Part shown: positions 3,381 to 51,417 of the stretch, one piece after another
Numbering within the stretch: position 1 is the stretch's first letter
How the letters are laid out: every line of letters starts with the position of its first letter
Source of the DNA: Minisyncoccota bacterium
GTDB lineage: Bacteria > Patescibacteriota > Minisyncoccia > UBA6257 > 2-01-FULL-56-20
Reading direction: 5' to 3'
Assembly (NCBI GenBank): GCA_025449695.1
Contig: JANWIW010000027.1
Location: 283-64,282, forward strand
Length of the DNA stretch: 64,000 nt
The notes under the pieces: generated by a model
The model's input: only the letters and a program-made list of their open reading frames with translations
Database searches by the model: none
Told to the model about the DNA's origin: nothing
Position numbers and translations under genes: made by a program

Positions 3381-4583
3381 ATGCGCATCCTGCACGTTTC
3401 GCCGACCTATCCTCCGGCGTACTACGGGGGAGCGATTGCGAGTGCTCATGCCGTGAACAAGTATCTGGTCCGTGCCGGGGCGGAGGTGGTCGTGTATACG
3501 ACCGCGGTGAACGGCGGCGCGGACCTGGACGTGCCGCTCGGCACGCCCCTCGACGTGGAAGGCGTGCAGGTGACGTATTTCAAGCCGGACTCTCCGCGGG
3601 CCTGGTTTTATTCCGGAGGTCTCCGCCGCGCGCTCTCCGCCGCCGCGCCCGGCTTCGATGCCCTCCACGAGACCTCCGTTTTTCTTTCCACGTCCTGGCT
3701 CACCGCGCGGGCGGCTGCGCGGAACCGCAAGCCTTACCTTATCTCCCCGCGAGGCGCTCTCATGCGCGCGCCGCTCCGGAGCAAGCAACTGAAGAAGGCG
3801 CTTTATATCGCCGCCATCGAGAAAAGAAATCTCAGGAACGCCACTGCCATCCATTTCACCGCCGCCATCGAGAAGGAGGAATACGATACGCTCGGGCTGC
3901 CCCGCCAGGGCAGCGTGCTCATCCCGAACGGGCTGGACACGGAGACGCTCGCGCCGGGCGACGGCACCGCCTTCCGGAAGCGGTTCGGCATCCGGCCGGA
4001 GCAAAAGGTAGTCTTGTTTCTCGGCCGTATCAGTTGGAAAAAGGGATTGGACACGCTCCTCGAGTCCTTCGGCGGGCTGGCGCGCGAGCTTCCGGATGCC
4101 GTGCTTGTGATCGCGGGCGGGGACGACGAAGGCTACATGCCCACGGTGCAAAAGCTGATCGCCGGGCAGGACATCTCCTCCCGGGTCGTCATGACCGGCA
4201 CCCTCCAGGGAGAGGACAGGTCGAATGCGTATGCCGCCGCGGATGTGTTCATCCTCGCTTCCTATGCCGAGAACTTCGGCAACTCCGTGGCGGAGGCCAT
4301 GCACTTCGGCGTGCCTGTGGTGATCACGGACGCGGTCGGCCTCGCGCCGCAGGTGCGTGCCGCGGAGGCGGGCTTCGTGACCCGCAAGGATCCGCTGGAG
4401 GTGAAGTTTGCGCTGTTCAAGCTCCTGCAGTCGCCGGCACTCCGCCGCGCGATGGGCGAGCATGGCCGGAGGCTGGTCAAGGAGGATCTCTCCTACACCG
4501 CCGTTGCCGGCAGGTTCCTGGAGGCATACACTCAATGCATTGCCGCGTACCGCACCGGCAGGACGCGCGCCATAGATCTATGA
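3381..4583 (+). CDS. glycosyltransferase family 4
   Basis: ATG at 3381 gives the GT4-typical start MRILHVSPTYPP (track start 3324 is an upstream GTG). C-terminal motif EDRSNAYAAADVFILASYAENFGNSVAEAMHFGVPVV. Confidence 0.8.
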   Translation: MRILHVSPTYPPAYYGGAIASAHAVNKYLVRAGAEVVVYTTAVNGGADLDVPLGTPLDVEGVQVTYFKPDSPRAWFYSGGLRRALSAAAPGFDALHETSVFLSTSWLTARAAARNRKPYLISPRGALMRAPLRSKQLKKALYIAAIEKRNLRNATAIHFTAAIEKEEYDTLGLPRQGSVLIPNGLDTETLAPGDGTAFRKRFGIRPEQKVVLFLGRISWKKGLDTLLESFGGLARELPDAVLVIAGGDDEGYMPTVQKLIAGQDISSRVVMTGTLQGEDRSNAYAAADVFILASYAENFGNSVAEAMHFGVPVVITDAVGLAPQVRAAEAGFVTRKDPLEVKFALFKLLQSPALRRAMGEHGRRLVKEDLSYTAVAGRFLEAYTQCIAAYRTGRTRAIDL

Positions 4584-5514: not shown

Positions 5515-6387
5515 ATGAAACCCCTTCCGCTAAGCGCTATTGTCCTCACTTACAATGAGGAAGCGAACATAGAAGAGTGCCTGCAGAGCCTCGCCGGCCG
5601 GGTGGACGAGATATTTGTCGTGGACAGCGGCTCGACTGATGGCACTCTCGCGATCGCCAGGCGCTACACGTCCCATATCGCGGAGCATCCCTTCAGGAAC
5701 TGGGCGGACCAGTTCAACTGGGCCGCGGATACGCTGCCATTGAAACATCAGTGGATCATGCGCCTCGATGCCGACGAGCGCATGACGCCGGATGCGTGGC
5801 GGGAGCTCGGGGATCTCTGGCCGAATCTCGGCGAGGATGCCTCCGGCATCGCCATAATGAAAGAGTTCTACTTTATGGGACGGGTCATGAGGCATGGCGG
5901 GCATTTTCTGCCCTGGATACGCCTCTGGCGGCGGGACCGGGCGCATTTCGAGGAGAGGCCCATGGACGAGCATTTGATCTTTTCCTCGGGGCGAGTGACG
6001 ACCCTGAAACACCCTTTCCGGGAGGAGGATCGCAAGGGCTTCCGGGCCTGGCTCACGAAGCACGTGACCTACGCCGAGCGCGAGGTCCAGGCACTGACCG
6101 GTCCCGGCGGCGACCTGGTCGCGCCCGATCTCAAAGGTTCCGCCGTCGCGCGCAAGAAGTGGCTCAAGCAGAACGTGTACCAAAAGCTGCCCCTCTTCGT
6201 CCGTCCCTTCCTCTATTTCTTCTACCGCTACGTGGTGCAAAGGGGCTTCCTCGACGGCAAGGAGGGCTTCATCTTCCACTTCTTCCAGGGGCTCTGGTAC
6301 CGCATGCTTGTGGACGTGAAGCTGTACGAGCTAAGGAAGAATCGACCCTTCGATAAAGCTCAGGGTAAAGAATCGACCCTTCGATAA
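5515..6387 (+). CDS. glycosyltransferase family 2
   Basis: LSAIVLTYNEEANIEECLQSL ... VVDSGSTDGTLAIA (GT2 N-terminal motifs). ATG 5515 follows the epimerase stop. The 3' end contains a 31-bp tandem duplication. Confidence 0.8.
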   Translation: MKPLPLSAIVLTYNEEANIEECLQSLAGRVDEIFVVDSGSTDGTLAIARRYTSHIAEHPFRNWADQFNWAADTLPLKHQWIMRLDADERMTPDAWRELGDLWPNLGEDASGIAIMKEFYFMGRVMRHGGHFLPWIRLWRRDRAHFEERPMDEHLIFSSGRVTTLKHPFREEDRKGFRAWLTKHVTYAEREVQALTGPGGDLVAPDLKGSAVARKKWLKQNVYQKLPLFVRPFLYFFYRYVVQRGFLDGKEGFIFHFFQGLWYRMLVDVKLYELRKNRPFDKAQGKESTLR

Positions 6388-6408
6388 AGCTCAGGGTAAA
6401 GAATCGAG
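6338..6408 (+). repeat. 31-bp tandem duplication, 2.3 copies (AGAATCGACCCTTCGATAAAGCTCAGGGTAA)
   Basis: Exact copies at 6338-6368 and 6369-6399, partial third to 6408; shifts the frame at the GT2 C-terminus. Confidence 0.9.
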
Positions 6409-9534: not shown

Positions 9535-10559
<1,025 letters not shown>

Positions 10560-15243: not shown

Positions 15244-15357
15244 CTGTCATCCCGGCCTTGCGGTGTCCTTCGAAGCCTAGGCGAAGGAGGGAGCCGGGAT
15301 CCAGACAAGTCATACTGGATTCTGGATAGCTCTCCTGGGCTTCCGGAATGACAAACA
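15244..15357. repeat. TGTCATCCCGGC ... GGCTTCCGGAATGACAA repeat (subfamily 2); copies at 51145-51239, 19889-19927 (half, inverted) and 52485-52534 (partial)
   Basis: 15244-15357 and 51145-51239 align over about 95 bp, with an internal hairpin GCCGGGATCCAG/CTGGATTCCGG. Confidence 0.75.
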
Positions 15358-18037: not shown

Positions 18038-19774
<1,737 letters not shown>

Positions 19775-19810
19775 TCGCTTCGCGACGTGGTAGCGTTGTA
19801 CTCGTTGGAT

Positions 19811-19843
19811 CGCCGCGCGCCCGTAAGGGCGCGCGGCTTGTTG
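19811..19843 (+). terminator. rho-independent terminator after groEL
   Basis: Hairpin CGCCGCGCGCCC-GTAA-GGGCGCGCGG followed by a CTTGTTG tail. Confidence 0.5.
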
Positions 19844-20016
19844 TAGGCGTTCGAATGCGCTTGCCGCTACCGTTATTATTCTTTTCAGTGTCATCCCGGA
19901 AGCCCAGCAGGGCTATCCGGGATCCAGCTGAGCGTGAGATGCTCCTCAAAGCATTGATTACCCAATGTTCCCCGCATTTGCGAAAGGCGTTTACCAAAAG
20001 GGGCTACTGGTCTACC

Positions 20017-21720
20017 ATGAGAGCCATGCAAACTCCGGAAGAGTTGCGCGACTACAAGCCCGACTTCGAACCGCACCATTGGACCGACGAGGACAGGCGG
20101 TATCTTTCGCCCTTCGTGACAAACGTGGATGGACTCGTCTCGGTCATCAGCCACAACCTGCCGCCGGAGATCACGGGAGCGCTCTGCTCCCGCGCAAGCC
20201 GCGCCACGGGTTCCCTCACGGAGGTTCTGCTCAAGGAATATATCAAGCCGATTCTGGAAGGGGAGGACAAAGAGCTTGCCGCCGAGTTGAACCGCACCAT
20301 CGAGTTCCTGGAGCGCGGCGGCTTCCGGAAAATCCTGAACAATCAGCGGGCGCAATCCTTCTACGCCCGTTGGCTCTCCCAATACGGCGACGACTCCATC
20401 GCCCAGCTCACCGGGACCCACGTAGTGCTCTGGGGCATCTCGCAGCTTGCCATGAAGTTTCTGGAGGACCGCCGCATTGGCCTGGAGCCCTTGGAGAAGT
20501 CGACCCGTTACGTTAATTTCAGCAACAAGGTCAACGGAAATTACCTGTACTACACCCCGAAGCCCGATCTGGAGAAACTGAACCTGCTTCAGGACTATCG
20601 AGCGACTCTCGACCATCTTTTCGATACGTATGCCGCGCTCTTGCCAAAGCTGCTCGAATGGCTGAAGGTCACCTTCGACGACAAAGAGTCGGTGCTGGAA
20701 AAAAAGGCTTTCGATACCCTGCGGGGTCTTTTACCCATGGCTACCCTCGGCCAGGTCGCATTCCGCGGGAATGCGCAGGCTTTCGAGTATGCCATCAACC
20801 GCATGGCAGGCAGCAATCTCGGCGAGTTCCGCTGGCTCGCCGCGTCTCTGAAGCAGGAATTAGACAAAGAGATCTACTCCCTGCTGCTGCGCCTGGAAGA
20901 CGAGAAAACCAAGCACTACCAGGAGTATCTCTCCCGCCGGCACGACAAGATCCGTGAGTTCATAGGGGAAAAGCAATGGGAAAAAGATGCGCCTGCGGCA
21001 AAGCCGGGCGTGCAGGAGGTCTTGCTTGCGGAATACACTCCCGATGCCGAGGAAAATATCATTGCAGGGATCCTCTTTCCCGAATTCCACGGTAGCTGGG
21101 CGGAGGCGCTGGCTCATGTGAAAAACTTGGATGAGGCCGGCCGCCGGGAGGTCATCAAGCGCTATCTGCCCGGACGGGAGCAGCGCTGGTACAAAGTGGG
21201 CCGGGCCTTCGAGAACGCGTATCTCCGGTTCGAGATCACTATGGACATCGGCGCCTACCGCGACGTCCAGCGCCACCGCATGATGACCCAGGACCGTCAG
21301 CGGTTCTCCACGCATCACGGCTATGCCGTCCCGGCGGAGCTGACCGGTGCCGGACTGGAAACTCCTTATCGCGAGGCGATGGACAAAGCAGCCGAGCTGT
21401 TCCGGAGACTCGAGGGAGCTGATCCCGACCTTGCTCAATATGTGGTGCCTCTCGGTTACCACATCCGTTTCTATCAATGGCAGAACTTCCGACAGTTCTT
21501 CTGGGAGGCCGAATTGCGGACCATCTCCCAAGGACATCCCGATTACCGGACCGTCGAGCAAAAGAAATATCTTCTGGTAAAAGAGAAGTTCCCGCTTCTC
21601 GCCGAGTTCATGCTGGTGGACATGAACGATTACGCCATCGCCCGCCGTGGCACCGAAGATAAGATCGTGGAGAAAGAGAAGAAGATACTGGAGCGGCTGC
21701 AGAATAAGGCCGGAAGCTAG
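20017..21720 (+). CDS. thyX: FAD-dependent thymidylate synthase ThyX-like, long form
   Basis: Thy1 motif RHRMMTQDRQRFS in the C-terminal half; long N-terminal extension as in long ThyX forms; folA directly downstream. Start uncertain (ATG 20017 or 19939; track 19855). Confidence 0.6.
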   Translation: MRAMQTPEELRDYKPDFEPHHWTDEDRRYLSPFVTNVDGLVSVISHNLPPEITGALCSRASRATGSLTEVLLKEYIKPILEGEDKELAAELNRTIEFLERGGFRKILNNQRAQSFYARWLSQYGDDSIAQLTGTHVVLWGISQLAMKFLEDRRIGLEPLEKSTRYVNFSNKVNGNYLYYTPKPDLEKLNLLQDYRATLDHLFDTYAALLPKLLEWLKVTFDDKESVLEKKAFDTLRGLLPMATLGQVAFRGNAQAFEYAINRMAGSNLGEFRWLAASLKQELDKEIYSLLLRLEDEKTKHYQEYLSRRHDKIREFIGEKQWEKDAPAAKPGVQEVLLAEYTPDAEENIIAGILFPEFHGSWAEALAHVKNLDEAGRREVIKRYLPGREQRWYKVGRAFENAYLRFEITMDIGAYRDVQRHRMMTQDRQRFSTHHGYAVPAELTGAGLETPYREAMDKAAELFRRLEGADPDLAQYVVPLGYHIRFYQWQNFRQFFWEAELRTISQGHPDYRTVEQKKYLLVKEKFPLLAEFMLVDMNDYAIARRGTEDKIVEKEKKILERLQNKAGS

Positions 21721-23248: not shown

Positions 23249-23327
23249 TCATTGCGTGCAGTACGCCGTCCCCTATCCCTTGGACTATTTCTTTTAAATG
23301 AGGCTCGGTTGCGGTATAATAATCCTC

Positions 23328-23882
23328 ATGACGACGATCGGAATAGTGATCGCAGTAATAGTAGTGGTGGCCCTCTGGCTTATCGCGGTCTTCAACGGCC
23401 TGGTTCGCGCGCGTATGCGCGCGCGGGAGGCGATGTCGGACATCGACGTACAGACCAAGCGACGCTACGACCTCATCCCAAACTTGGTAGAGACTGTTAA
23501 AGGCTACGCGAAGCACGAGAGCGGCGTCTTCGAGCGGGTGACCGCGGCCCGCACCGCCGCCATGCAGGCGCCGATGGGCAATGCGAAGCTGGAGGCGGAG
23601 AACGCGCTTAGCGGGACCCTGAAATCGCTCTTTGCGGTGGCGGAGAACTACCCAGACCTCAAGGCGAACCAGAACTTCCTGCATCTCCAGCAGGAGCTCA
23701 CCGACACCGAGAACAAGATCCAGGCGTCGCGCCGCTTCTATAACTCGAATGTCATGGAGTTGAACACGAAGATCGAGACCTTCCCCACGAATCTCATCGC
23801 CGGCCCTTTCGGTTTCTCCAAGATGGAATTCTTCGAGGTTCAGAATGACGTTGAGCGCGCCCCGGTGCAGGTGAAGTTCTAG
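23328..23882 (+). CDS. lemA: LemA family protein
   Basis: N-terminal TM helix then the LemA domain (RRYDLIPNLVETVKGYAKHE ... NYPDLKANQNF ... RRFYN). ATG 23328 preferred over track start 23298. Confidence 0.8.
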   Translation: MTTIGIVIAVIVVVALWLIAVFNGLVRARMRAREAMSDIDVQTKRRYDLIPNLVETVKGYAKHESGVFERVTAARTAAMQAPMGNAKLEAENALSGTLKSLFAVAENYPDLKANQNFLHLQQELTDTENKIQASRRFYNSNVMELNTKIETFPTNLIAGPFGFSKMEFFEVQNDVERAPVQVKF

Positions 23883-23891
23883 TGCACAAGC

Positions 23892-23934
23892 GTTGTAGTT
23901 GTTCTAATCGTTCTACTCGTTGTAGCGTGGATGA
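23892..23934. repeat. same family, left arm flanking the four-helix-bundle gene (locus C-left)
   Basis: gttgta-gtt-gttcta-atc-gttcta-ctc-gttgta immediately upstream of the GTG start. Confidence 0.8.
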
Positions 23935-24321
23935 GTGGCAAAGCTGCTCTTCACCCGTTATAGATTTGAGGATCTGGAAGTATGGCAAGTCGCCCAATCT
24001 ATTGTGACGGAAACTTATAAACTCACGCGCAGCTTCCCGAGTGACGAGCGTTTTGGATTGACAAGTCAATTCAGAAGGGCCGCGATATCTATCTCTCTAA
24101 ACATCGCCGAAGGAAGCGGCCAGCAGAGTCCGAAAGGCTTTGCGAACTATGTAAATCGAGCAAAGGGCTCGTTGTTGGAATGCGTCGCGTGCGCTAGAAT
24201 TGCGGAACAGGAAGACTTCTCGCGCAACGACGATATGCGCACACTCGTCGTTTTGCTTGAGAAGGAGTATTTCAAACTGATTGCTTTAGAAAAGGCGCTA
24301 CGGAGCAGGATTCACGATTAA
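23935..24321 (+). CDS. four-helix-bundle protein (23S rRNA intervening-sequence protein family)
   Basis: DLEVWQVAQSIVTETYKLTRSFPSDERFGLTSQFRRAAISISLNIAEG matches the IVS four-helix-bundle family; GTG start; flanked by GTTCTA/TAGAAC dyad arrays. Confidence 0.8.
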   Translation: MAKLLFTRYRFEDLEVWQVAQSIVTETYKLTRSFPSDERFGLTSQFRRAAISISLNIAEGSGQQSPKGFANYVNRAKGSLLECVACARIAEQEDFSRNDDMRTLVVLLEKEYFKLIALEKALRSRIHD

Positions 24322-24336
24322 AACATTCGCATCGGT

Positions 24337-24351
24337 TACAACGATTAGAAC
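24337..24351. repeat. same family, right arm flanking the four-helix-bundle gene (locus C-right)
   Basis: tacaac-gat-tagaac between the IVS-protein stop and the htpX start. Confidence 0.7.
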
Positions 24352-24358
24352 ACTGCCC

Positions 24359-25261
24359 ATGGCCACCATCTACTCCCACAAGGACGCCAACGTACGCAAG
24401 ACCTGGTTCTTGTTTACAGGCTTCCTCGGCGTCGTCATCGCGCTCGGCTGGGTAATCTCCCAGTACTACGGCGATCCGTCCATCCTCCTCTTCGCGGTGA
24501 TCTTCTCGACGGTCATGAGCCTCGTGAGCTACTGGTATTCCGACAAGATCGTCCTCTCCATGGCCCACGCCAAGGAAGTGGACCTCAAGGCCAACCCGGA
24601 GCTCTACCGGATCGTGGAAAACCTCGCCATCACCGCCGGACTGCCCATGCCAAAGCTTTATATAGTACCCGAGGCGCAATTGAACGCCTTCGCGACCGGC
24701 AGGGACCCGAAGCATGCGGTCGTCGCCGTGACCGAAGGCCTGCTCGCGAAGCTCGATAAGACGGAGCTGGAGGGCGTCCTTGCCCATGAGATGTCGCACA
24801 TAGGGAACCGCGACATTCTGGTCAACACCATGGCGGTCATCTTGGTGGGTTTCATTTCCCTCGTCGCCGACATGTTCATGCGCTCCATCTTTTGGGGTTC
24901 CGGCAACCGCGACCGGGAGGGCGGGGGAGGAGCCATCGCCATCATCGGCCTCGCGCTCGCGATCCTCGCGCCCATCTCGGCCACGCTCCTCCAGCTGGCC
25001 ATTTCCCGCCGGCGCGAATCCCTGGCGGACGCCTCCGGCGCCCTCCTCACCCGTTACCCTCGGGGGCTTGCCTCTGCCCTGGAGAAAATCGCCCGGGACG
25101 TTACGCCCATGCGCCGCGCCCGGAATACCACCGCCCACCTTTGGATAGACGACCCTTTCACCGGCCAGCAGCGTACCGCCTGGTGGCACAAGGCATTCAT
25201 GACCCATCCTCCCATCGAGGAGCGCATCCGCGCATTGAGGGAAATGAGCTTGGGTGGATGA
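24359..25261 (+). CDS. htpX: protease HtpX (M48 family)
   Basis: N-terminal TM helices, HEMSH zinc motif (VLAHEMSHIGNRD), C-terminal TM helices. Confidence 0.9.
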   Translation: MATIYSHKDANVRKTWFLFTGFLGVVIALGWVISQYYGDPSILLFAVIFSTVMSLVSYWYSDKIVLSMAHAKEVDLKANPELYRIVENLAITAGLPMPKLYIVPEAQLNAFATGRDPKHAVVAVTEGLLAKLDKTELEGVLAHEMSHIGNRDILVNTMAVILVGFISLVADMFMRSIFWGSGNRDREGGGGAIAIIGLALAILAPISATLLQLAISRRRESLADASGALLTRYPRGLASALEKIARDVTPMRRARNTTAHLWIDDPFTGQQRTAWWHKAFMTHPPIEERIRALREMSLGG

Positions 25262-25294: not shown

Positions 25295-25342
25295 CCCTCG
25301 CCTTTCCTTAAAATGCGGCCGCATTTTAAGGAAAGGCGAGGG
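25295..25342. repeat. perfect 48-bp palindrome centred on GCGGCCGC; a degenerate second copy lies at 25433-25470
   Basis: CCCTCGCCTTTCCTTAAAATGCGGCCGCATTTTAAGGAAAGGCGAGGG; second copy CCCTTTCCTTAGGATGCGGCCGCATTTTAAGGAAAGGG. Confidence 0.8.
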
Positions 25343-25512
25343 CGTGAGAATCGCCGGTAGCAGGGTGCCACCCTGGAAAAAGCGAATACTTGGTGATATC
25401 CTTCCTCCTGTTCCCACGCCTTTCTTTCTGTCCCTTTCCTTAGGATGCGGCCGCATTTTAAGGAAAGGGAAGATGGAACAGTTGGAGATTTTCCCGGGCA
25501 ATGTAACCTGGA

Positions 25513-44618: not shown

Positions 44619-45962
<1,344 letters not shown>

Positions 45963-46029
45963 ATAGTTTTCAGTTGCAAGTTGTCAGTTGTTAGTGCATT
46001 CGGCTAAGAACTAAGAACTGTATCAGCTC

Positions 46030-49494: not shown

Positions 49495-49560
49495 GTTCAA
49501 ATCGTTCTATCCGTTGTATCGTTCGCCTAGAACGGATTGAACGGTGAGAACGATTACAAC
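49495..49560. repeat. same dyad array family (locus D), between infB and rbfA
   Basis: gttcaa-atc-gttcta-tcc-gttgta ... tagaac-gga-ttgaac-ggt-gagaac-gat-tacaac; the last unit overlaps the infB stop codon. Confidence 0.85.
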
Positions 49561-51086: not shown

Positions 51087-51417
51087 GTTAGCCCGCCCAT
51101 GATATCAAAAGAACGGCATTCCGTCGAATTTGGCTGTCCGGGACCTGTCATCCCGGCCTTGAGCCGGGATCCAGGATAACAGGGAAATACTGGATTCCGG
51201 ATAGCCCTGCTGGGCTTCCGGAATGACAAGCGGGCCTATTCGCTTTGTTTTCCGGATAGTATCCGTTCGATTTGACACGCTTCTACATTTGGCGTTGAAT
51301 AAGCAATCGTCCCTTGATAAGCAGGTCCGGAAAACCCAAGGGCAGCTATCTGCGCTTGGGTTTTCCGGACCGAACGCCGAATGCATCCTAACGATGTTGA
51401 AACCTGTGGAGGGACCG

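Follow-up and report, generated by a model that had tools for sequence, protein, structure and literature searches.

A four-helix-bundle gene between inverted tandem arrays in the lemA-htpX gap of a Patescibacterium: a resident cassette whose protein may read its own repeats

Why does a gene for a small four-helix-bundle (4HB) protein lie between lemA and htpX at positions 23883-24358 of a 64,000-nt stretch of Minisyncoccota bacterium DNA (contig JANWIW010000027.1; hereafter the window, meaning the whole stretch), and what are the tandem repeats that frame it? A first-pass annotation had described the gene as an insert of the type found in 23S rRNA intervening sequences (IVSs), bounded by the two halves of repeat dyads that occur without a gene elsewhere in the window, and had proposed a mobile or IVS-like element spreading into intercistronic spacers. 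The analysis reported here shows that the segment is a resident '4HB cassette', that is, a promoter-less sense gene of the PF05635 family between inverted arrays; that the cassette is orthologous across the Patescibacteria, gene and arrays having been cleanly lost together in some lineages; and that it is one case of a family-wide rule, in which the repeated word is specific to the gene lineage. The features of the locus are as follows.

23298 to 23882, plus strand: lemA, the upstream cistron (PF04011 LemA, E 2.3e-60), TAG stop codon at 23880-23882
23892 to 23924, plus strand: left arm, GTTGTA at 23892, GTTCTA at 23901, GTTCTA at 23910 and GTTGTA at 23919, in exact 9-nt phase
23935 to 24321, plus strand: 4HB gene, intact, 128 amino acids (aa), GTG start; PF05635/TIGR02436, with an XCC0516/S23p/Avd-like fold
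24319 to 24351, plus strand: right arm, TAAAAC at 24319, CGCATC at 24328, TACAAC at 24337 and TAGAAC at 24346, in one 9-nt phase
24359 to 25261, plus strand: htpX, the downstream cistron (Peptidase_M48, PF01435, E 3e-34)

The matches to PF05635, PF04011 and PF01435 bear out the description of an intact 4HB gene between lemA and htpX, and the four-unit GTTGTA/GTTCTA array described on its left was likewise recovered, ending 10 nt before the 4HB start codon. A further GTTCTA, at 23876-23881, shares nucleotides with the lemA stop codon and does not keep the phase of the left arm. The TACAAC/TAGAAC array described on the right stands as far as its word is concerned, which is the reverse complement of that on the left, but it contains only two good units, not four; TAAAAC at 24319 includes the 4HB TAA stop codon, and CGCATC at 24328 is a decayed unit. 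This arm stops 7 nt short of the htpX ATG, and the sequence upstream of that start has no Shine-Dalgarno (SD) site. Inverted repeats between the two arms extend over 23 nt at 83% and 15 nt at 93%, and no target-site duplication was visible at the arm ends. In the window as a whole, GTTSTAN3GTTSTA was matched 13 times, against 0.00 expected from 100 shuffles, and the looser GTTNTAN3GTTNTA, with up to one mismatch, 25 times against 0.78.

The 4HB open reading frame (ORF) matched PF05635 (23S_rRNA_IVP) with an E value of 3.5e-29 and 101.6 bits (cut-off 33.8), and TIGR02436 ('four helix bundle protein') with an E value of 1.2e-25 and 89.9 bits (cut-off 24). The protein aligns end to end with its homologues, in an alignment that has 27 invariant columns. 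R48, S52, N56 and E59 of the family motif GxxRxxxSxxxNxxE (PMC3936711) are invariant across that alignment, while the leading G of the motif is replaced by Q45 throughout the clade to which the protein belongs. An AlphaFold2 model (mean predicted local distance difference test score 91) consists of four helices. In a Foldseek search its best match was XCC0516 (2GSC; TM 0.86/0.94, root-mean-square deviation 0.8 A, 38% identity), followed by BT_0352 (2RLD) and then by Avd of diversity-generating retroelements (DGRs; 4DWL/8UB7, TM 0.72-0.79); a profile search of the PDB retrieved 2GSC at an E value of 2e-22. By profile, motif and fold, the gene is a member of the S23p/IVP four-helix-bundle family, which comprises 27,044 clusters at 50% identity when the limit is set at E <= 0.001, or 8,931 when it is set at E <= 1e-10. 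The label '23S-IVS-type' is thus correct as to family, but the name is historical: none of 56 scanned related loci was situated in rRNA. An Rfam scan likewise detected no rRNA in the window, where only four tRNAs reach the gathering score, and neither the cassette nor the window dyads matched a curated covariance model. The protein is mildly basic, its isoelectric point being approximately 8.6 (clade median 8.7-8.9). Since the 2GSC and 2RLD entries contain five chains each, the protein is assumed, by analogy with these solved homologues, to be pentameric. Profile libraries revealed no domain other than PF05635, and specifically no nuclease or recombinase domain. A role as a defence gene was ruled out, no PADLOC family being matched at E <= 0.01.

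The arrangement of gene and arrays is by no means peculiar to this locus. A metagenome scan with the 4HB alignment yielded 80 related loci, and the flanks were compared at all of them; statistics were calculated on 64 non-redundant PF05635 loci. It is apparent that almost every PF05635 gene in this set has a short tandem array on its left and the reverse complement of that array on its right. When the 110 nt preceding each gene were compared with the reverse complement of the 110 nt that follow it, the median number of shared 6-mers was 10, as compared with 4 for control ORFs in the same loci (Mann-Whitney p 2.6e-15; chance expectation approximately 3), and no excess was observed at the 64 loci when the flanks were compared in direct orientation. 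Tandem periodicity was also enriched in these flanks (p about 1e-14). Periods of 7 (the commonest), 8 and 9 nt were found, and an arm most often comprises four units. Of the genes next to a 4HB gene, 56 of 64 on the upstream side and 49 of 61 on the downstream side point the same way as it does, mostly at distances of up to 200 nt.

The repeated word differs from one 4HB lineage to another. It is GTTSTA followed by two or three free nucleotides in the htpX clade, AGACTTY in a nusG-4HB-rplK clade, CAACCTT in a clade situated upstream of an epimerase, and, among other words, GTAGACA, GGACTAC, GTCGAG or TAGCTAG in further lineages. Two paralogues on contig L173 carry CGTNTCGAT and GGTTCAA, respectively, and same-contig paralogues with different words were found on L131, L080 and L091 as well. 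The word is therefore tied to the gene. On cyanobacterial plasmids, three of four PF05635 genes have heptamer arrays on both sides; Nostoc punctiforme, for example, has TCAGGAG x5 / CTCCTGA, and N. edaphicum has GTAGGGA x8 / TCCCTAC x5. These arrays presumably correspond to the short tandemly repeated repetitive (STRR) heptamers of cyanobacteria, from which the window cassette differs in its 9-nt period. Among open-access papers and preprints, none was found that links STRR families with 4HB genes or that describes either the flanking-array rule or dyads lacking an ORF. Cassettes were also observed between or beside tRNA genes (Met/His, Asn, Pro; L143 2840-3500, L153 3404, L186 3428 and L160 3763-3968), one of them approximately 400 nt upstream of a group I intron match.

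The word of the lemA-htpX cassette recurs, without a gene, at three other sites in the window.

9535 to 9617, no strand: dyad A, four GTTNTA units, a 17-nt loop and four TANAAC units
18039 to 18123, no strand: dyad B, 4+5 units, filling the groES-groEL spacer
49495 to 49560, no strand: dyad D, 3+4 units, between infB and tRNA-Cys (minus strand)

The earlier statement that the cassette arms are the split form of these empty dyads was confirmed, in that hexamer and phase are the same. The resemblance ends there, however: the four window dyads, filled and empty, have only hexamer and phase in common, their spacers and loops differ, and no near-identical copies exist among them. The predicted RNA folds of the empty dyads have energies of -26.9 kcal/mol (z -3.9) for A, -30.3 kcal/mol (z -6.5) for B and -25.3 kcal/mol (z -4.1) for D. 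Empty dyads begin 1-5 nt past a stop codon, which is often within the first unit, and end 0-17 nt ahead of the next start codon; eight of ten that could be classified lie between co-directional genes. Dyad A occupies the gap from the stop codon of a family 2 glycosyltransferase (9533) to the ATG of an NAD-epimerase (9624), the final unit of dyad B overlaps the groEL ATG at 18122, and the infB stop codon (minus strand) sits inside a unit of dyad D. Intrinsic terminators were ruled out, no window dyad being followed by a U-tract, as were integron cassettes or attC sites, there being arrays on both sides and no integrase.

Several further observations concern the same or similar sites. In L202, L203, L208 and L209, a 4HB gene of the clade with CAACCTT-type arrays immediately precedes an NAD-epimerase gene whose product has 54-61% identity to the window epimerase, the one preceded by dyad A. 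In contig L211, a relative with HtpX at 73% identity, the groES-groEL spacer contains a dyad (4173-4281) with another word, CTAATTA ... TAATTAG, and in its sister contig L210 that spacer measures only 5 nt; the groES-groEL site is thus reused while the dyad word changes between lineages. At 45965-46020, following the stop codon of ORF 44625-45962, is a dyad with a 7-nt period (AGTTGCA AGTTGTC AGTTGTT, then CTAAGAA CTAAGAA), which looks like a shortened variant of the GTTNTA/TANAAC dyads. Past the groEL stop codon (19795-19854), GTTGTA-N3-GTT units stand on either side of a GC-rich hairpin, CCGCGCGCCC-GTAA-GGGCGCGCGG; the orientation of these units is direct rather than inverted.

Comparison with related genomes bears on the age of the cassette. 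The 4HB homologues nearest to the window protein share no more than 64% identity with it and derive from Patescibacteria (Kaiserbacteria, Harrisonbacteria and Paceibacteria). A Kaiserbacteria locus (L001) has the order lemA-4HB-htpX, its left array consisting of four GTTNTA units and its right array of five TANAAC units; its HtpX and 4HB proteins are 54% and 55% identical to those of the window. The same cassette with arrays is present in a Saccharibacteria contig (L009), and cassettes with arrays were found upstream of HtpX in approximately 20 metagenome loci. For nearly all close homologues (4HB identity about 50-64%), the gene immediately downstream encodes an HtpX with 53-66% identity to that of the window. 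Beyond lemA and htpX, the window contains genes for dihydrofolate reductase (DHFR), ThyX and an amino-acid kinase, and several metagenome loci have tRNA-Ser(GGA) downstream of the cassette, as does the window.

Closer relatives, with HtpX 73-82% identical (five contigs from four sources), keep the synteny of groEL, the thymidylate synthase gene, DHFR, lemA, htpX and the amino-acid kinase, but neither a 4HB gene nor a GTTSTA array was present in the lemA-htpX gap of any of the five. In two of these relatives (L125 and L127-129), lemA and htpX adjoin, 40-77 nt apart; in the remaining three, unrelated ORFs occupy the gap (L126 1786-3960, L211 9557-9994 and L210 9179-9863), the occupants being a DUF2339 protein of 724 aa, an ORF of 145 aa with a predicted membrane product, or a trio of small ORFs on the reverse strand. 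The lemA-htpX gap is, then, a recurrent landing place for extra genes. Approximately 63 kb of sequence from relatives lacking the 4HB gene at this site contained no GTTSTA arrays, where only about four would be expected at the density of the window; this is suggestive only, given so low an expectation and the possibility of other words. Gene and arrays behave as a single unit, being jointly present in the window and in distant Patescibacteria and jointly absent from the lemA-htpX gap of closer relatives. Because the close homologues sit upstream of HtpX proteins that have diverged in step with them, we read the cassette as an old, vertically inherited resident, sometimes lost as a unit, and not as a recent insertion.

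A recent insertion and the proposed mobile spread were accordingly not borne out, given the deep synteny and given that the dyads are not copies of one another; the mobile-element interpretation is correct only in part. It is very improbable, in our view, that the filled copy is an autonomous mobile element and the empty dyads its non-autonomous copies in spacers, comparable with MITEs (miniature inverted-repeat transposable elements) or with REPINs. A gene with its own inverted repeats, accompanied by dispersed copies lacking the ORF, does parallel the RAYT/REPIN arrangement; 4HB clades do occur at many kinds of site, namely htpX, rplK, an epimerase, tRNA clusters, cas operons, where IVP genes are wedged between cas genes (PMC3936711), and rRNA, IVP ORFs being known from insertions in 16S and 23S rRNA of the Candidate Phyla Radiation (CPR; PMC11270868); and the gap in relatives holds other inserted genes. 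However, synteny is maintained over deep divergence, the 50-64% identity of the 4HB proteins tracking the 53-66% of HtpX; the dyads share only hexamer and phase; neither target-site duplications nor a nuclease or recombinase domain were found; and the cassettes are strongly co-oriented with their host operons. The near-identical copies and target-site duplications that characterize MITEs and terminal-inverted-repeat transposons are lacking from the window dyads. The likeness to REPIN-RAYT systems goes further: in both, a vertically inherited gene is flanked by its own inverted repeat, ORF-less palindromic copies are situated in mostly co-transcribed spacers, and each gene lineage is paired with its own repeat. 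The 4HB protein, though, has no HUH/Y1 transposase or nuclease motif, and its repeats are arrays of 6-7-nt words with free spacers and non-identical copies, whereas REPs are conserved palindromes of approximately 25-35 nt.

What is conserved within the arrays was examined in 19 GTTNTA-class dyads, with expectations obtained by permutation. Spacer positions matched between arms in 79 of 159 cases, as against 83.4 expected, and position 4 of the hexamer in 36 of 72, as against 38.7; in these 19 dyads there is, therefore, no covariation of the variable positions between arms beyond compositional bias. Spacers are 3 nt long in 73 cases and 2 nt in 16, and the two lengths are sometimes mixed within one array or between orthologous cassettes. 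Because the variable positions do not covary, selection is on the word and its 2-3-nt spacing and not on base pairs. The flexibility of the spacer fits a single strand better than rigid duplex DNA. On the evidence of these sequences, a conserved word with near-fixed but flexible spacing would be the signature of a trans-acting reader, not of a compensatory stem or of recent copies.

These results weigh directly on the interpretation that is closest to IVS biology. In a purely structural, IVS-like element, the arms would pair in the transcript and RNase III would cut the stem, the 4HB protein not being a reader of the repeats. The cut would release the ORF segment, separate the lemA and htpX mRNAs and perhaps make 5' ends that are leaderless or have short leaders; the empty dyads would be sites processed in the same way but with no passenger gene. 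The resemblance to rRNA IVSs that encode S23p/IVP proteins (Leptospira, Coxiella, Xanthomonas, CPR) is substantial, since the protein family is the same and, as in those elements, a sense ORF within the host transcript is bracketed by inverted repeats capable of forming a long stem. In the IVS of Coxiella, for which excision by RNase III has been shown, three tandem heptamers are situated just upstream of the start codon for S23p (PMC4990558). In the window, the arms are inverted, and in the predicted minimum-free-energy fold of 23876-24364 the outer arms pair over a distance of approximately 400 nt; the empty dyads are stable (-25 to -30 kcal/mol, z -3.9 to -6.5); and the right arm stops 0-8 nt short of the next ATG in a window where many genes are leaderless-looking or lack SD sites.

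Against this, no compensatory pattern exists between the arms. In the register of the hairpin, no more than about half of the comparisons at the spacers and at hexamer position 4 give a match, which would interrupt the stem every 9 nt, and the filled region folds only marginally better than shuffled sequences (z -1.9). Pairing alone leaves unexplained why the dyads of a genome use one word, why that word is kept across about 55% protein divergence while the spacers drift, and why paralogues differ in word. The claimed likeness to IVSs therefore holds in that the arms can pair in the predicted fold, but not as regards covariation between them. The cassette also differs from IVSs in lying between protein-coding genes rather than in rRNA, and in having arms that are phased arrays of one word with ORF-less versions in other gaps. 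It is an IVS-like layout in protein-coding operons, with gene-less relatives, and we consider it rather doubtful that structure alone accounts for it.

The arrays might instead be cis-elements of the host, read by a factor unrelated to the 4HB protein, with 4HB genes merely persisting in such spacers. One example would be a CA-rich translation enhancer, TACAAC, serving internal cistrons in bacteria without SD sites; another would be a thermosensor or a masked enhancer acting on groEL and htpX. SD-like tetramers were found at 8 of 58 window genes, which we take to be close to background, the genome being essentially SD-free; the region of the right arm is therefore the sole upstream context of the downstream cistron. 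TATAAT-like words (tatact, tataaa, tactat) were also observed at about -7 to -12 of many window starts, which suggests that many window mRNAs may be leaderless or have very short leaders. When genome contigs were scanned with GTTSTAN3GTTSTAN3GTTSTA, the matches listed were mostly chance or coding repeats, but a few Bacteroidota and CPR loci with true dyads were among them, and Bacteroidota genomes contain empty GTTGTA/TACAAC dyads in the same 9-nt phase. A host element would fit the occurrence of this word in two SD-poor phyla, Patescibacteria and Bacteroidota, and the paucity of SD sites in this genome; it would also fit the invariable position of the right arm against a start codon, the existence of half arrays with TACAAC only upstream of genes, and the heat-shock genes that follow two of the four window sites. 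Other lineages, however, have the same architecture with words that are not CA-rich (GTAGACA, GGTTCAA, CGTNTCGAT, TCAGGAG), same-contig paralogues differ in word, and gene and arrays are jointly missing from the lemA-htpX gap in close relatives. Such a host factor is, in our estimation, improbable.

The explanation that we prefer, and that we regard as falling not far short of probable, is that a pentameric 4HB protein reads the repeats on single-stranded RNA and thereby modulates an intercistronic hairpin. Arrays such as (GUUCUANNN)4 / (UAGAACNNN)4 (GUUCUAAUC, UAGAACGAU) would be the putative recognition sites, each subunit of the pentamer reading one word on a single strand, most likely that of the operon mRNA. 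The arms would pair as an imperfect hairpin burying the region just upstream of the next start codon, and binding of one arm would decide how far the hairpin or the open form prevails. This, in turn, may govern the processing and translation of a downstream cistron (htpX, groEL, the epimerase) that has no SD site. The placement of the 4HB gene between its own sites would provide for autoregulation.

Two known RNA-binding systems offer points of comparison. TRAP (trp RNA-binding attenuation protein) is a ring around which repeated RNA triplets separated by spacers of 2-3 nt are wrapped. The likeness lies in the short words with 2-3-nt spacers, in the four to five words set against the pentamer of the homologues, and in arrays situated beside a start codon within an alternative hairpin. 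The 4HB fold is unrelated to that of TRAP, however; binding by the 4HB protein is inferred; and its arrays are inverted pairs with the gene between the putative sites. Avd, which has the same fold as the 4HB protein, forms a barrel of five subunits that carries positive charge, and an RNA element to which it binds has been defined (bioRxiv 10.1101/2023.10.23.563531). It differs from the 4HB protein in sequence (about 10-12% identity) and in gene neighbours, which here are lemA and htpX. That the 4HB gene is itself a DGR avd was ruled out, as there is no reverse transcriptase or template/variable repeat beside it.

Several points weigh against recognition of the repeats by the 4HB protein. The link between protein and repeat is drawn by association; the net charge is modest, +2 to +5 per monomer; and the pentameric state of the window protein is assumed from its homologues. 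Conservation of the word could come about through concerted evolution among the repeats or through some other host factor. Some cassettes run against the direction of their neighbours, for example that of Nostoc edaphicum between nrdB and nrdA, and such antisense cases weaken a model operating strictly at the level of mRNA. No GTTGTA-flanked 4HB gene was found beside the Bacteroidota dyads, within loci of 8 kb only. Finally, half arrays exist in which TACAAC-N3 occurs three or four times ahead of a gene start and no GTTGTA arm accompanies it (L057 2776-2808 and L024 1038-1061).

Some additional features of the window were noted. It may be that lemA really starts with the ATG at 23330. A perfect palindrome centred on GCGGCCGC (CCCTCGCCTTTCCTTAAAATGCGG|CCGCATTTTAAGGAAAGGCGAGGG, 24+24 nt) occupies 25295-25342, in the gap that follows htpX, and a near-identical second palindrome (25431-25470, 20+20 nt at 90%) follows approximately 110 nt away; these form a separate repeat family and have no U-tract. 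Copies of a third repeat family, TGTCATYCCGGAAGCCCAGCAGGGCTATCCGGRATCCAG, about 40-45 nt in length, are situated at 19887-19930 (plus strand), 51190-51232 (minus) and 15310-15350 (minus), and two of the three have an identical 17-mer core, as against 0.01 expected. As one copy falls inside the 5' end annotated for the long thyX ORF, the real thyX start may lie further downstream. That ORF (19855-21720) is unusually long, at 621 aa, with two stretches that match Thy1; its start may be set wrongly, or part of it may have been duplicated internally. At 6337-6407, a unit of 31 nt, AAGAATCGACCCTTCGATAAAGCTCAGGGTA, is perfectly repeated in tandem, in 2.3 copies (score 142).

For the S23p/IVP family, two crystal structures date from 2006-2007, and DGR Avd is, as far as we know, still its only member with a function assigned; where rRNA IVSs come from and what they do is likewise, to our knowledge, unsettled. 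The family now gains a concrete and testable hypothesis, recognition of repeats by the protein, which we base on the inverted, lineage-specific arrays, the gene-less arrays in stop-to-start gaps and the conservation of word and spacing. In its broadest form, which we put forward tentatively and would not call probable, PF05635 proteins would recognise short tandem repeats in a sequence-specific way, and every lineage would have a 6-7-nt word of its own. With the ORF-less dyads they would form a widespread, previously undescribed cis/trans system that organises intercistronic regions, in both processing and translation start, in SD-poor Patescibacteria, Bacteroidota and Cyanobacteria, and of which rRNA IVSs and cyanobacterial STRR would be special cases. 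In bacteria without SD sites, the layout described here may also account for the way in which internal cistrons are dealt with.

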